This document shows positions 3,538-10,485 of a DNA stretch of 64,000 nt, one piece after another. The number at the start of each line of letters is the position of its first letter. The stretch's first letter is position 1. The stretch lies in contig OY843592.1 in NCBI GenBank assembly GCA_963692865.2, positions 160,001 through 224,000 of the forward strand, read 5' to 3'. Source of the DNA: a bacterium. GTDB taxonomy: Bacteria; UBA8248. The notes under the pieces were generated by a model that was not told the DNA's origin, did no database searches, and worked only from the letters and a program-made list of their open reading frames with translations. Position numbers and translations under genes: made by a program.

Positions 3538-4965
3538 TTACAATGCGGGACGCCGATTCCGCAACTCGGGGGTCGCCTTCTCGTAGGCGTGGACCGCGCG
3601 CAGCACCGCCGCCTCCTCCCAGGGTCGGCCAATCACTTGAAGCGAGAGGGGCATGCCCTCTTTTTCCGAAAACCCGGTGGGAACCACCGCCGCCGGGAAA
3701 CCCGTCAGGTTCTGGTGGGTGAGGAACGGCATGGTGAGCGCCAGTGAGTAGCCCACCTCCTCGCCGTTGATCACGGCCTTCAAATCGTCGAGTCGCGGGG
3801 CGATGCACGGCAGGGCGAGGGTGAGGATGACGTCCACCTGCTCGAATAAGTCGAGCACCTTGCGCCTTAGAATCTCGCGCTCGCGCCCCGCGCGGATGTA
3901 TTCGTCCAGATCGGCCCCCGTGAGGCTCGCCTCCACCCGCTCCCGCGTCGAGGCGCCGTAACCGTCCGGGTCCTGCTCATAGAGCGGCCTGTGGAACTCG
4001 GCGAATTCGCATTGGATGATGACGCGGTTCACGCGCATCAAGCGCTCCGCGTCGTCGAAGGGCAGCGTCTCGACCCGCGCCCCCGACTCCCGGAAGGCGT
4101 CGACGGCCCGCTCGAAGGCCCCCGCCACCTCCGCGTCCGCCTCGAAGCCGCCCGAAAGCCCGGGGCAAAGGCCCACCCGTAGACCTTCCGCGCCCTCATC
4201 GATCCGGGCGGAGAAGTCGGGAACCGGCATGTCGCGGCTATAGGAGTCCTCAGGGTCGTAGCCCGCCATCCCCTGCAAAAAAAGAGCGGCGTCGCGCGCG
4301 GAGCGGGCGATCGGCCCCACGTGGTCGTAGCTCAGGCAGTTGGGGCACACGCCGCGCAGGCTCACCCGCCCGTGCGTGGGCTTGAGTCCCACGAGACCGC
4401 ACAGCGCCGAAGGCCCGCGGATGGAGCTGCCCGTGTCCGTCCCGATGGCCGCCGGGCAAAGGCCCGCCGCGACCGAAGCGGCGGAACCCGTGCTCGATCC
4501 ACCCGTCATGCGGTCGGTGTCCCACGGGTTGCGCGCCGTGCCGAAGTGGACGTTTTCGCTCAGAGGACCTGAGGCGAACTCCTGTGTGTGGCACTTGCCG
4601 AGCAGAATCGCGCCGGCGCGCTTGAGGCGCGCGACGCACTCCGCGTCCGCATCGGGCACATTGTCTCGAAAAAAGCTCGACCCGCGCGTCGTCCGCACGC
4701 CCGAGGTGTCGATGATGTCCTTGACCCCGTAAGGGATGCCGTGCAAAGGGCCCAGCCTGCGGCCTGCGGCGATTTCCTCTTGCGCGCGCTTCGCCTCGGC
4801 CAGCGCGACTTCGGCCGTCACTTCGAGAAAGCCCATGATAACGGGATTGAGCGAATCGATGCGGCGCAGGAACGCCTCGACCACGTCGACGGGAGAGAGT
4901 TCTCCCGCCCCGATTCGCTCTGAAAGCTCGTGAAGCTCAAGCCGGCAAATATCATCTGCGCTCAT
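3538..4965 (-). CDS. Amidase signature family enzyme (GatA-like amidase)
   Basis: GPLHGIPYGVKD, TGGSSTGSAA, GTDTGSSIRGPS (Lys-Ser-Ser triad). Confidence 0.92.
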   Translation of the reverse strand: MSADDICRLELHELSERIGAGELSPVDVVEAFLRRIDSLNPVIMGFLEVTAEVALAEAKRAQEEIAAGRRLGPLHGIPYGVKDIIDTSGVRTTRGSSFFRDNVPDADAECVARLKRAGAILLGKCHTQEFASGPLSENVHFGTARNPWDTDRMTGGSSTGSAASVAAGLCPAAIGTDTGSSIRGPSALCGLVGLKPTHGRVSLRGVCPNCLSYDHVGPIARSARDAALFLQGMAGYDPEDSYSRDMPVPDFSARIDEGAEGLRVGLCPGLSGGFEADAEVAGAFERAVDAFRESGARVETLPFDDAERLMRVNRVIIQCEFAEFHRPLYEQDPDGYGASTRERVEASLTGADLDEYIRAGREREILRRKVLDLFEQVDVILTLALPCIAPRLDDLKAVINGEEVGYSLALTMPFLTHQNLTGFPAAVVPTGFSEKEGMPLSLQVIGRPWEEAAVLRAVHAYEKATPELRNRRPAL

Positions 4966-5016
4966 GGCATAGTCTCCCCGAAAACGCGCTCCGCCCTCCC
5001 GTAGGCCAGGAATAAA

Positions 5017-5703
5017 TCAACCCTCCGACCCGGCGGACGCCGGGAGCGCTTCTTCCGCATCTTCGGATGGGCCCTCTTTCGCCCACCAGCACTCGTTCAT
5101 GAAATCGGAAAAATCTTTTTTGTCGATCACGGCGGATTTGGTGAACAGGGTCATCTGGTCATCGCCTTCGAGGTCGGTCTCGAGCGCGTCGGTGAAGCGG
5201 TTCCACATGTTGAAATAGCCCGACACGAGCGTCGCCTCGACGATCTGGGCGTGATCGTAGTGTTTCTTCATGTTCTCAAGCGCATCGGGGTTCCGGGCGA
5301 AGGTGTATTTCGTCAGGTGATACGCCCAGGCGATGGCCGCCTTCTCGGCGTCGGTGAACAGGTCCGAATCCTGATACGCGTCGTCCCTCACGGCGTCAAT
5401 CTGGGCATCAGAAAGCCCGCACGCTCGACCGAACGTGACGTTGTGGGCCGTTCAGTACTTGCACCCGTTTTCCATCGAGGTCTTGAGGATCAAGAGCGCC
5501 TTGGTCCTGGCGTCGAGCACGTCTGTGATCTCCGCCCGGCACAGCGAGATCAGAAAGCCGAACAGCGGCTGAAGCATCCTCGGGCTGGCCGAACTCACGC
5601 GGATGGCGTTCGCCACGCGGCCGAACATCCTGCGGCTCGCGTCGAACACCACGGCGGCCTCGGGGCCGGCCTCCTCATCGCTCAGAATCGGTAGTTGCGC
5701 CAT
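5017..5703 (-). CDS. AhpD/carboxymuconolactone decarboxylase family protein; predicted selenoprotein (CxxU, TGA at 5454-5452)
   Basis: ORFs 5452-5709 and 5017-5391 are in one frame separated by a single TGA, giving NGCKY-U-TAHN at the NGCxYC site; SECIS-like hairpin follows. Confidence 0.82.
5415..5451 (-). promoter_or_regulatory. Bacterial SECIS-like stem-loop
   Basis: After UGA: GCCC..CACGUUC-GGUC-GAGCGUG-C-GGGC; apical loop GGUC begins 21 nt after UGA. Confidence 0.72.
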
Positions 5704-5825
5704 CGACATCTCCTCCTTATCAAGATTTCAAAATGAGAATTATATCCTTGAGTTTACGACTTCTTGGTGCTGGTCAATTCATAATTTCTTCTCCAAAACC
5801 ACTCCCTCATACCTGGGTTTCTCTC

Positions 5826-6005
5826 ACTCCCCCTTGAGGGAGTTGTTGAAAATGCCCACAGAAGGAGCACACCGATTTTCACTCCCCCCTTGAGGGTCTG
5901 GCTTCCCGAGGGGAAAGCCAGACCCTCAAGGGGGGAGTGGTTATATCGTTCCCCTTCGAATCCAGAACCCGGAATCCAACTGTCGGGTCATGTCTATAAT
6001 TCCCC
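5826..6005. repeat. Intergenic palindromic repeat cluster (ACTCCCCCCTTGAGGG...CCCTCAAGGGGGGAGT) plus a tail repeated in inverted form at about 10537-10619
   Basis: Inverted pair 5881-5938; related copies near 21323, 21496 and 43909; 5925-6005 aligns with the reverse complement of about 10537-10619. Confidence 0.6.
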
Positions 6006-6012
6006 TCAGAAT

Positions 6013-6753
6013 TCAGTTCACGGGCGGCCAGAGGCGGCGGCCCACGCTCGGGCTGCCGGGCGCGTGGACGAGCGATCTCACCACCCGGCCCGACCACCCG
6101 CTCTCATCGAGCGAGAGGCTCTCGTGCTTCTGGAAACCCTCCTCCCTCGCCTCGAGCGAGGTGAACTCGTACATGATCGAATGCTTGGCCCAGCCCGCGG
6201 CGGAGAGCAGCTTCCTCGCGCCGATGCACCCGGGCATCCCCTCCATGAACTTGAGGCGGTACTGCGCGTACCAAGCGCCCAAGTCGTGCTCCGCCTCCGC
6301 GTCCCGGGAGATGAACTGCCCCATCTGAATCGCGGGTCCGGGCGTGATGCCGGGACCTCTGGAGTCCACGTCGGGACCGTCGACGCGCGCCTCCTCGCTG
6401 AATATGCATTCGCGATATCCTTCGCGAAGGCCCAGCATGGCCCTCGCCTCGTCGTCGTGTTCTTTCGCGATATCCGCGAGTGTGGGATCAAAAAACACAT
6501 GGGGCGACACCGCCCCGAACAGGATCACGTACCCCGTGCCGCCGGGAAGCGCATCGGGCGCGGCGTATGTGAGGGCCGTGTTCTTCACCTGCTCCATCTG
6601 CGCCCCGTCGTGTTCGACCTCGTAATGCGCCGCCCACAGAAAGCCCGCCCGCTGCCGCATGGCGGGCAGGTGACGCCCGTGCAGCCAGGCGCAATAATCA
6701 TCTTTTTCGTCTTCGGGCAGATCGTACCAGGACGCCCAGATTCCTCGATCCAT
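6013..6753 (-). CDS. Tandem EthD/DUF4286-like dimeric alpha/beta-barrel protein
   Basis: Two repeats of a W...H/R...PG pattern (AWLHGRHLPAMRQRAGF; AWYAQYRL..MEGMPG); start MDRGIW at 6753. Confidence 0.6.
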   Translation of the reverse strand: MDRGIWASWYDLPEDEKDDYCAWLHGRHLPAMRQRAGFLWAAHYEVEHDGAQMEQVKNTALTYAAPDALPGGTGYVILFGAVSPHVFFDPTLADIAKEHDDEARAMLGLREGYRECIFSEEARVDGPDVDSRGPGITPGPAIQMGQFISRDAEAEHDLGAWYAQYRLKFMEGMPGCIGARKLLSAAGWAKHSIMYEFTSLEAREEGFQKHESLSLDESGWSGRVVRSLVHAPGSPSVGRRLWPPVN

Positions 6754-6785
6754 TATATGACTCCATCCAAAAGGTTGGTGAGACG

Positions 6786-7169
6786 CTACTGCACGAAGGT
6801 CGTGCCCGCCTTGTCCTGGTGGGAACAGTTCCCGTAGGTGGCGATGAGCTCGGCCGGCTCGGTCTCGCTCGGGTTCTCCTGCCCGTGCGGCTCGCCGGCG
6901 GGCGCGTAGCAGAAATGCCCCGCCTCGACAAGGATTTTTTCGGGATTTTCGGGATCCCCGCAATAGACGTAGATCGGCCCCTTGTTCACGTAAAACACCG
7001 CGTCGCACGTATGGGTGTGCATCTTGTTCTTCCCGCCGGGGGGGATGATGGTGCGCTGCATGGTCATGACCTTCGTGTCGGTCGTCTCGTCGTTCACCCC
7101 CCACATGATGGAGTAGGGAGGTTCGTAGGCGTTGTCCTTGTCCACGCTCATGGAATTGATGATCTTCAT
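6786..7169 (-). CDS. Cupin domain protein
   Basis: HTHTCDAVFYV..G and PAGEPH..EN cupin motifs; RBS AAGGAG. Confidence 0.85.
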   Translation of the reverse strand: MKIINSMSVDKDNAYEPPYSIMWGVNDETTDTKVMTMQRTIIPPGGKNKMHTHTCDAVFYVNKGPIYVYCGDPENPEKILVEAGHFCYAPAGEPHGQENPSETEPAELIATYGNCSHQDKAGTTFVQ

Positions 7170-9457: not shown

Positions 9458-9482
9458 GGGCACATCATCAAAGGAGACCATC

Positions 9483-10463
9483 ATGAAAAAACGCTTCTTC
9501 GTCATCCTGGCCGCGCTGGCCTTCATCGTCGCGCTGGGAGCCCCCTCCGCGAGCACGGCGGCCTATCCGGACAGGCCCATCACGCTCGTCCTGCCCGTGG
9601 GCGCGGGCGGCAGCCACGACCTCCACGCGCGCGGCATTACCAGCATCATCGCCGACATTCTCGGCCAACCCATGGTCGTGAAGCTCGTGCCCGGCGGCGC
9701 GGGCATGAAAGGCACCGGCTTCGTCGCCAAGGCCAAGCCGGACGGCTACACCCTGCTCTTCACCCACAACGGCTTCGACCAGCTCGTGCCGCAGACCCGC
9801 AAGGTGCCCTTCGACACGCTGCGCGATTTCTCGGCCGTCGCCAAGATCAACCACGGGCAGCCGGTGTTCTTCTCCCTGGCGAACAGGCCGTGGAAGAACA
9901 TGAAGGAATTCGTCGCCTACGCCAAGAAAAACCCCGGCAAGGTCAACTGGGGCCACAGCGGCGTCTGGGGCGCGGGCCACGTGCCCTCCATGCAGTTCGT
10001 TCGCGCGGCGGGCATCAAGGTGAACTTCATCCCGCATAAAGGCGGCGGCCCCGCGCTGCGCGCCGTCCTCTCGGGCCAGGACGACGTGGGCATCGCCTTC
10101 CCGACCCAGCTTCGCCCCCACAAGAAGGCCGGAAAGGTCACCGTGCTCGCGCTCACAGGCGATATGCGCCTCTCGAAGGACAAGGACTTCAAGGAAGTCC
10201 CGACCACGACGGAACTCGGCTACAAGGGCGTGGGCTTCACGATGGACCGCATCTTCATGGCGCCATCCAAGACGCCCGCCGACAGGCTGAAGAAGCTCCG
10301 CGACGCATTCGAGAAGCTCACGAAGAACAAGTCCTTCAAGCGCTTCATGCGCAGCATCGGCGAGAACGTGGTGTTCGTGAGCGGCGCGAACTACGAGAAG
10401 ACCAGAAAGCCGAACTTCGACGGCTACACGCAACTCATCAAGGCCATGACGATGAAGAAATAG
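9483..10463 (+). CDS. tctC: Tripartite tricarboxylate transporter substrate-binding protein (TctC/Bug)
   Basis: Signal peptide; YPDRPITLVLPVGAGGSHD, KPDGYTL, PHKGGGP. Confidence 0.92.
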   Translation: MKKRFFVILAALAFIVALGAPSASTAAYPDRPITLVLPVGAGGSHDLHARGITSIIADILGQPMVVKLVPGGAGMKGTGFVAKAKPDGYTLLFTHNGFDQLVPQTRKVPFDTLRDFSAVAKINHGQPVFFSLANRPWKNMKEFVAYAKKNPGKVNWGHSGVWGAGHVPSMQFVRAAGIKVNFIPHKGGGPALRAVLSGQDDVGIAFPTQLRPHKKAGKVTVLALTGDMRLSKDKDFKEVPTTTELGYKGVGFTMDRIFMAPSKTPADRLKKLRDAFEKLTKNKSFKRFMRSIGENVVFVSGANYEKTRKPNFDGYTQLIKAMTMKK

Positions 10464-10485
10464 GTTCATAGGGCCAGGCATTACC

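Follow-up and report, generated by a model that had tools for sequence, protein, structure and literature searches.

A probable selenocysteine codon within a CMD/AhpD-family gene of a UBA8248 bacterium, and its conserved three-gene context

Is a TGA codon lying in the middle of an otherwise open reading frame (ORF) a stop codon, or is it a selenocysteine (Sec) codon at the active site of a redox enzyme? The question is raised by a minus-strand gene found in a stretch of 64,000 nucleotides (nt) from a UBA8248 bacterium (contig OY843592.1, positions 160,001 to 224,000, assembly GCA_963692865.2); this whole stretch is called the window below, and positions are counted from its first letter. The frame is open from either of two ATG codons (5709 or 5703) down to a stop codon at 5019-5017, with one internal TGA at 5454-5452. 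A first-pass annotation had noted that this lone TGA coincides with the second Cys of NGCxYC, in a frame intact to 5017, and the translation with TGA read as U agrees: as the motif then reads M-E-N-G-C-K-Y-U-T-A-H-N, the TGA stands at the second redox position of a CxxU motif, whose first Cys is the TGC at 5463-5461. Our answer is that 5703..5017, hereafter CMD-Sec, very probably encodes a 228-residue thiol/selenol oxidoreductase of the AhpD/CMD fold with UGA-84 read as Sec. The features on which this answer is built are listed here with the evidence for each, SECIS standing for selenocysteine insertion sequence:

5017..5703, minus strand: coding sequence of the probable selenoprotein of the CMD/AhpD family, 228 residues long and ended by the TGA at 5019-5017 (frame, orthologues, Pfam CMD)
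5452..5454, minus strand: in-frame TGA, probably read as Sec, codon 84 from ATG 5703, second position of CxxU (TGA in 20/20 orthologues, Cys in 9/9 full-length homologues)
5461..5463, minus strand: TGC at codon 81, for the Cys that opens the CxxU redox motif (sequence, homologue alignment)
5712..5717, minus strand: AGGAGG, Shine-Dalgarno-like, 8 nt 5' of ATG 5703 (read from the sequence)
5420..5437, minus strand: putative upper SECIS hairpin, 7-base-pair (bp) stem and GGUC loop (folding, covariation among paralogues, synonymous freeze, GGT codon use)
5414..5449, minus strand: larger SECIS prediction, confined to this ortholog group, that adds a lower stem (5449-5445 with 5418-5414) (folding)

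The initiation codon had to be chosen between two candidates. The spacing from the AGGAGG (5717-5712) is 8 nt for ATG 5703 and just 2 nt for ATG 5709, and the N-terminus is MAQ or MAH in all 20 orthologues; because of this spacing and of these starts, ATG 5703 appears to be the likelier initiation codon and 5017-5703 the best gene model, from which 228 residues are predicted with the arrangement Cys81-x-x-Sec84-x-x-His87. A scan of 4900-6100 for promoters and terminators returned no sigma-70-like site and one terminator-like site, which is on the plus strand, inside the CMD-Sec gene, and at chance level.

As the in-frame TGA is the sole one, the ORF list built with translation table 11 shows two pieces, 5709..5452 (85 amino acids, aa) and 5391..5017 (124 aa). 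The expectation that annotation pipelines would call two fragments is borne out in public databases: our search for short proteins gave 60 short public proteins among 71 candidates, many of which are N-terminal pieces of exactly 83 aa, with C-terminal pieces of 111-124 aa among the rest. One of the 83-aa proteins, 100% identical, comes from the very contig of the window's genome. These short pieces are unnamed or called “hypothetical protein”, one of them being misnamed as a CopG-family regulator. The TGA is also spanned by contigs from RNA libraries that share about 93% identity with the window (X1, 5334-5559; X2, 5060-5550; X3, 5014-5502); they belong to three libraries from two studies with sponge-metagenome labels, cover the region partially (for example, 5988-6800 is uncovered in X1-X3), and give a weak hint that the CMD-Sec gene is transcribed.

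We searched 61 genomes, i.e., 60 related genomes and the window's own, with the read-through protein. Orthologues were found in 19 of the 22 other genomes of the same genus (81-93% identity) and in 4 of the 14 genomes from other genera of the same family (57-77% identity), and a single in-frame TGA is present in every one of the 24 orthologous matches, the window's included. Three same-genus genomes (G005, G015, and G017; 79-94% complete) contain paralogues only and gave no orthologue. Among the fetched ortholog loci, the TGA codon is identical in 20/20 (own included), flanked by the peptide NGC[K/E]Y-TGA-TAHNVTFGRACGLSD, and the 21 codons running from the TGA to GTG 5391 are completely conserved at the protein level. 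The ratio of nonsynonymous to synonymous substitution rates (dN/dS, Nei-Gojobori, 190 pairs) is 0.085 for codons 1-83 and 0.126 for codons 85-205; this latter value denotes purifying selection 3' of the TGA, and the downstream part is, therefore, translated.

The alignment of homologues shows the Cys/TGA pairing that the first-pass annotation had suggested looking for: facing the TGA of the 20 orthologues, a Cys (NGCxYC) occupies the Sec column in all nine full-length public homologues that cover the site, namely P0002-P0009 (211-224 aa, 46-55% identity) and the distant relative P0011. In a maximum-likelihood tree of 24 rows, the Sec orthologues form a clade (100/100) beside the Cys group (joint support 93/97), and apart from two other clades of Sec paralogues; the tree being midpoint-rooted only, we claim no direction for the Sec/Cys change.

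The genome from which the window was taken (4.15 Mb, 8 contigs, 97% complete, 6.7% contamination; G000 in our set) possesses selA, selB, selC, and selD, the four genes whose presence was to be verified. Neither finding that would have refuted the first-pass reading, a genome devoid of Sec machinery or homologues with neither Cys nor TGA at the site, was made. The tRNA-Sec (76.7 bits for a cut-off of 47, at two places in the genome), SelA (567 bits), SelB (392 bits, model positions 1-580 of 581, its gene adjoining selA), and SelD (335 bits) all score over the curated cut-offs. The selD gene (C1:65915-66877, minus strand) has one in-frame TGA of its own, with the Sec site KAGG-U-GSKLGP; when the U of the UGA is numbered nt 1, as in all that follows, the hairpin after this TGA carries a GGA triloop at nt 21-23 and not GGUC, and selD thus says nothing for or against a GGUC rule valid across the genome. 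The second tRNA-Sec, of equal score, is on the small contig C4 (29719-29811).

Downstream of UGA-84, the minimum-free-energy fold contains a 7-bp stem (nt 18-24/29-35, i.e., 5437-5431 with 5426-5420) that starts 14 nt past the UGA and is capped by the apical loop G25 G26 U27 C28 (5430-5427); a G16-C36 pair closes this stem across an unpaired U17, and a lower stem pairs nt 6-10 with nt 37-41 (5449-5445 with 5418-5414). The first-pass annotation had reported a stem-loop with a GGUC apical loop, likened to that of E. coli fdhF, at the expected distance from the TGA, and we do find it at that place, with the loop running from nt 25. The apical loop of fdhF begins at nt 22 and reads GGUC. PMC8659212, in which the term GGUC is absent, gives for the fdhF SECIS a G23/U24 in the apical loop, an upper stem-loop 11 nt from the UGA, and a bulged U17. 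Both elements are thus in-frame hairpins placed directly 3' of the UGA with a G-U in a small apical loop, whereas the one described here has this G-U at nt 26-27, one codon further 3', an upper stem of 7 bp beginning at its own distance of 14 nt, and no conserved bulged U at the fdhF distance.

Taken as a single sequence, the hairpin has weak to moderate support against chance, as only its 21-nt core beats shuffled sequences (dG -8.6 kcal/mol, z = -2.34, 3/200 shuffles as stable); it is the comparative evidence (covariation, GGT use, and synonymous freeze) that raises it above chance. We aligned 60 nt around the TGA of each of ten paralogues from the same genome, whose proteins share 30-38% identity. 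Across them, 82.9% of the cells of the upper helix are paired, with two-sided changes in 5 of the 7 pairs (e.g., xUC/GAx versus xUU/AAx, or CG versus GC). The covariation score of 0.357, for a column-shuffle mean of 0.159, was reached by none of 500 shuffles, and shifting the partners by 1-3 columns gives at most 0.152. Eight of the ten paralogues have the loop GGUC, with GGCC and GGC once each, and the Gly codon of the loop is GGT in eight of the nine HN-type paralogues, when GGT represents about 13% of the Gly codons in the long ORFs of the genome (binomial p ~8e-7, an approximate value, as the ORF set is crude and the paralogues share ancestry). Among orthologues, the synonymous diversity of hairpin codons 89-96 is 0.062 when the gene averages 0.210, which places them at rank 8 among 197 codon windows; the codons on either side vary freely at synonymous sites, and the sole change in the stem, CGA to CGG, keeps a U-G pair.

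CMD-Sec is not alone in its genome, as the protein has ten TGA-bearing paralogues at 30-38% identity on contig C1. Besides CMD-Sec, nine CMD-family genes outside the window, all on C1, have an in-frame TGA at the CxxU position:

C1 101502-102161: TGA paralogue
C1 293374-293898: TGA paralogue
C1 522053-522367: TGA paralogue
C1 2351710-2352252: TGA paralogue
C1 2678235-2678762: TGA paralogue
C1 2988137-2988730: TGA paralogue
C1 3416530-3417105: TGA paralogue
C1 3677854-3678393: TGA paralogue
C1 3935550-3936143: TGA paralogue

Their motifs are NGCAYU, NGCDYU, NSCAYU, NDCAYU, NDCEIU, ECNNU (twice), and FCNYU. The same contig also carries a Cys paralogue (C1:3198412-3198951, NGCHFC), in whose translation the * stands close to the C-terminus, and, at C1:521400-522367, two tandem diverged CMD paralogues, one with FCNYU (TGA) and the other with QDTYF, devoid of Cys or Sec. 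A near-duplicate of the C1:3677854 paralogue, broken by a 2-nt insertion past the TGA, is found at C6:2445-2986; given the contamination estimate of 6.7%, the small contigs C4 and C6 may represent strain variation, in which case this copy and the tRNA-Sec of C4 would not be genuine duplicates. In related genomes of the family, we obtained 3-22 matches each, with a TGA in every match listed.

The protein has the AhpD/CMD fold. The Pfam CMD domain (PF02627) is matched with 36.5 bits for a cut-off of 23, over residues 52-129 of the 231-codon reading, i.e., across the TGA. In profile searches against PDB sequences, the strongest matches are Atu0492, PA0269, and the P. aeruginosa CMD-family chain 7xw1 (E = 5.5e-24 to 2e-23), the entry of the latter being titled AhpD in Foldseek. 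Bmp8, a CMD homologue acting as a debrominase in marine bacteria, is matched over its full length (E = 2.7e-18, query 6-181 to chain 13-184), and “peroxidase-related” proteins come next together with D. radiodurans AhpD (E ~1e-14). An AlphaFold model built from an 11-row alignment is all-helical, with a mean predicted local distance difference test (pLDDT) score of 70.6 that reaches 80-95 in the core; the N-terminal third and the C-terminal tail are poor. Foldseek ranks Bmp8 first for this model (E = 2.7e-5, template modelling score normalised on the target, TM, 0.75), followed by P. aeruginosa AhpD (TM 0.84, over the core), and the M. tuberculosis AhpD structures are distant (1knc, 1gu9, and 1lw1; TM 0.47-0.55, E = 0.27-0.43). 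We, thus, do not assign the protein to the M. tuberculosis type of AhpD: this fold match is weak, and no peroxiredoxin was found among the 10 neighbouring ORFs scanned, AhpC itself not having been searched genome-wide.

Comparing the protein with its nearest structural relatives helps to define it. PA0269/P. aeruginosa AhpD (2ijc, 2o4d, 7xw1) and Atu0492 (2gmy) are its best core matches (E ~1e-23 to 1e-24, TM on target 0.76-0.84) and have the NGCxYC motif in common with it, whereas they are single-core proteins of 145-165 aa, without the N-terminal helices, with Cys instead of Sec, and with a His one residue further from the second Cys. Bmp8 (6ohi, 6ohj) is the best full-length match by both profile and structure, and its GCMYCKSH aligns with the motif of CMD-Sec, including the His located three residues past the second redox position; its chemistry is a two-electron reduction via the Cys pair, according to PMC5577590. 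It differs from CMD-Sec by an identity of only about 20%, by Cys in place of Sec, and by its genetic context, as no bmp-type halogenase cluster lies near CMD-Sec in the 10 neighbouring ORFs scanned. CMD-Sec itself ends with a C-terminal extension of about 50 residues in which a WW is nearly invariant.

The neighbouring genes are listed with their support, and the first two form a trio with CMD-Sec:

6786..7169, minus strand: cupin gene, 127 aa, first of the trio (Cupin_2, 43.5 bits; 16/16 loci, 74-99% identity)
6013..6753, minus strand: gene of a 246-aa protein without Pfam family, between the cupin gene and CMD-Sec (directly upstream in 16/16 loci)
3538..4965, minus strand: amidase gene, 51 nt downstream of CMD-Sec (Amidase, 374.5 bits; adjacency not conserved)

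The order and orientation cupin, 246-aa protein, CMD-Sec are the same in the 16/16 loci of relatives, two of which belong to distant relatives (71-73% identity), and the 246-aa protein is probably part of the same gene cassette as CMD-Sec. No Pfam match was obtained up to E = 5 for this 246-aa protein or for the ORF at 9468-10481; in the Atlas, the former falls nearest to clusters of about 250 aa annotated as “hypothetical protein”, and EthD/DUF4286 is a weak lead. The distance between its gene and CMD-Sec is 32-45 nt in 15 of the 16 loci and 309 nt in the window, where the gap (5710-6012) holds a repeat element: a palindrome at 5880-5939 with 28-nt arms, 243 blastn matches in the genome, and a depth spike of about 100-fold in metagenome contigs. 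Considering the short gap of the 15 other loci, this repeat element is an insertion into the cassette. The amidase was rejected as a functional partner because it is adjacent to CMD-Sec in only 3/16 loci (within 334 nt), being about 5.06-5.09 kb away in 9/16 and not found in 4/16. In the sole such gap that we examined (L052:6690-11750), a Liv-type ABC transporter encoded on the opposite strand (two ATPases, a periplasmic binding protein, and two permeases) separates CMD-Sec from the amidase; the window lacks this block at the corresponding place.

From the recoded frame, the Sec/Cys pairing, the covarying hairpin, the Sec machinery, the fold, and the synteny, all of which were computed, we infer Sec insertion, a redox cycle, and candidate substrates. 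SelB loaded with GTP and Sec-tRNA(Sec) would dock on the hairpin located 14 nt past UGA-84 and deliver Sec to the ribosome instead of letting termination occur. The chemistry is most likely a two-electron cycle: the mature protein would alternate between a reduced selenol/thiol and an Se-S bond (selenenyl-sulfide), giving two electrons to an oxidised substrate. Candidates for this substrate are a peroxiredoxin-type partner or a hydroperoxide, by analogy with AhpD, and small-molecule electrophiles. CMD-Sec is the last gene of the conserved three-gene cassette that also includes the cupin and the 246-aa protein.

One has to set several observations against this reading. Regarding the hairpin, larger folds do not stand out from shuffled sequences (76 nt: z = -0.87, 39/200 shuffles as stable; 41 nt: z = -1.17, 25/200); the lower stem is not conserved, with 48% of cells paired across paralogues; the unpaired U17 is not at the fdhF distance from the loop, and the equivalent column varies among paralogues; and a permissive Rfam scan of 5250-5600 returned neither a SECIS nor any credible family (best 12.8-15 bits, E = 4-7). 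Moreover, the hairpin overlaps the conserved peptide xLGxxxG, so that part of the nucleotide conservation is protein-driven, and the paralogues are not fully independent of each other. Regarding the protein, the curated NCBIfam cut-offs of the nearest named families are missed: TIGR01926 “peroxidase-related enzyme” gives 38.4 bits for a cut-off of 81.8, in a full-length match (6-178 to 3-173 of 178) which means that the architecture is shared and curated membership is not; NF053654 “YciW-related (seleno)protein” gives 52.7 bits for 310 and NF041238 23.9 bits for 175. The contigs from RNA libraries may stem from DNA in these libraries, and an AhpD-type partner is unsupported by the genomic context, in which no peroxiredoxin was seen among the neighbours scanned.

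Among the alternatives, the one that survives best accepts the selenoprotein and differs on its function, which would be that of a small-molecule reductase of the Bmp8 kind and not AhpC/AhpD peroxide detoxification: the enzyme would remove a halogen reductively or reduce another electrophilic group, in cooperation with the cupin and the 246-aa protein; its selenol would attack the substrate, and Cys81 would then resolve the adduct. It draws on the first rank of Bmp8 as a full-length match in profile and fold comparisons, on the CxxCxxH spacing that Bmp8 shares and from which PA0269 departs by one residue, and on the debromination by oxidation of cysteines to a disulfide proposed for Bmp8 (PMC5577590); what is conserved beside CMD-Sec is a cupin and the 246-aa protein rather than a peroxiredoxin, and some ten diverged paralogues per genome would fit a diversification of substrates. 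We nevertheless regard this function as unlikely, since the identity with Bmp8 is low, the “peroxidase-related” structures 2oyo, 6k40, 3c1l, and 2pfx are nearly equal to it (TM on target 0.68-0.71), the 10 ORFs scanned include no halogenase or bmp-like gene, and the C82A mutation of 6ohj would fall on the motif's first Cys when Sec is here the second (with an assumed and unverified offset of 3 residues between chain and published numbering). It is a decidedly speculative idea, and quite an improbable one in our opinion, that the cassette and the ten or so CxxU paralogues are selenium-dependent small-molecule reductases, i.e., Bmp8-like dehalogenases or reductases of other electrophilic aromatics; the relatives of this lineage and the best-matching RNA libraries carry sponge-metagenome labels. 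If true, it would provide a bacterial CMD-fold counterpart of the selenium-dependent deiodinases.

The two remaining alternatives dispute Sec itself. The UGA could be read through without Sec, by a near-cognate Trp or Cys tRNA or following a genome-wide reassignment of TGA, the hairpin merely slowing termination; while sequence data by themselves cannot identify the inserted residue, we hold this to be very improbable in a genome with a complete selA/selB/selC/selD set, at a site that is the redox Cys of CxxC in homologues (the classical Sec/Cys pattern), and with a conserved G-U-containing loop that covaries at SECIS distance; CMD-Sec itself ends in TGA, so this codon is still a stop in the genome, against reassignment. 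That the TGA is a true stop, of a pseudogene or of the first of two genes (83 aa, then 124 aa from GTG 5391), follows the table-11 ORFs and the separate proteins of public gene callers and is next to impossible to reconcile with a TGA fixed in 20/20 orthologues and retained in other genera at 57-77% identity, with a dN/dS of 0.126 after it, with a CMD domain and colinear full-length Cys homologues spanning it, and with the intact peptide encoded by the 21 codons before GTG 5391.

Sec-containing CMD proteins were presented in the first-pass annotation as a known class, and rightly so. A study of the Sargasso Sea metagenome reportedly catalogued AhpD-like/CMD-like CxxU selenoproteins, and such proteins have been catalogued since 2005-2008. 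CxxU AhpD-like (COG2128/TIGR01926) and CMD-like (PF02627) proteins are long-established selenoprotein families (PMC2398784, PMC13188914, and PMC9312934), with entries in reviews of 2022 and 2026; the tables of the first two agree with this status, Table 1 of PMC2398784 giving, for the Global Ocean Sampling (GOS) study, 299 members of “AhpD-like 1” and 70 of “AhpD-like 2”, and the 2026 review (PMC13188914) listing AhpD-like, CMD-like, AhpD-related, and distant-AhpD forms. CMD-Sec resembles these families by its fold family, by a CxxU with Sec second, by its Cys homologues, and by a SECIS just 3' of the codon. It differs from them by scores under the curated cut-offs, by its C-terminal extension of about 50 residues with WW, and by the cupin/unknown/CMD-Sec cassette, which the consulted portions of these same three sources do not mention. 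Relatives of the window's genome are labelled as Nitrospinota or Tectomicrobia metagenome-assembled genomes (MAGs), and a matching label occurs in Table 2 of the BSepDB paper: of the ten bacteria ranked there as richest in selenoproteins, three are “Nitrospinota/Nitrospinae” MAGs placed in the GTDB phylum UBA8248, where 48-54 selenoprotein genes were counted per MAG. Our ortholog group may already be an entry in BSepDB. A keyword search limited to the open-access literature returned no paper on the cupin/unknown/CMD-Sec cassette or on the per-genome expansion; what is new here is the set of about ten CxxU paralogues per genome and the conserved cupin/246-aa/CMD-Sec trio.

These results leave the knowledge of Sec decoding unchanged. 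Public gene calls cut CMD-Sec and its paralogues, about ten per genome, into pieces or truncate them; a whole set of redox enzymes is therefore missing from proteome and metabolic reconstructions made for this uncultured lineage. To the CxxU AhpD/CMD selenoproteins, our results add a well-supported subfamily with a covarying SECIS, a Cys sister group, and a three-gene context, the latter being a concrete handle on the long-standing question of the substrate of these proteins.

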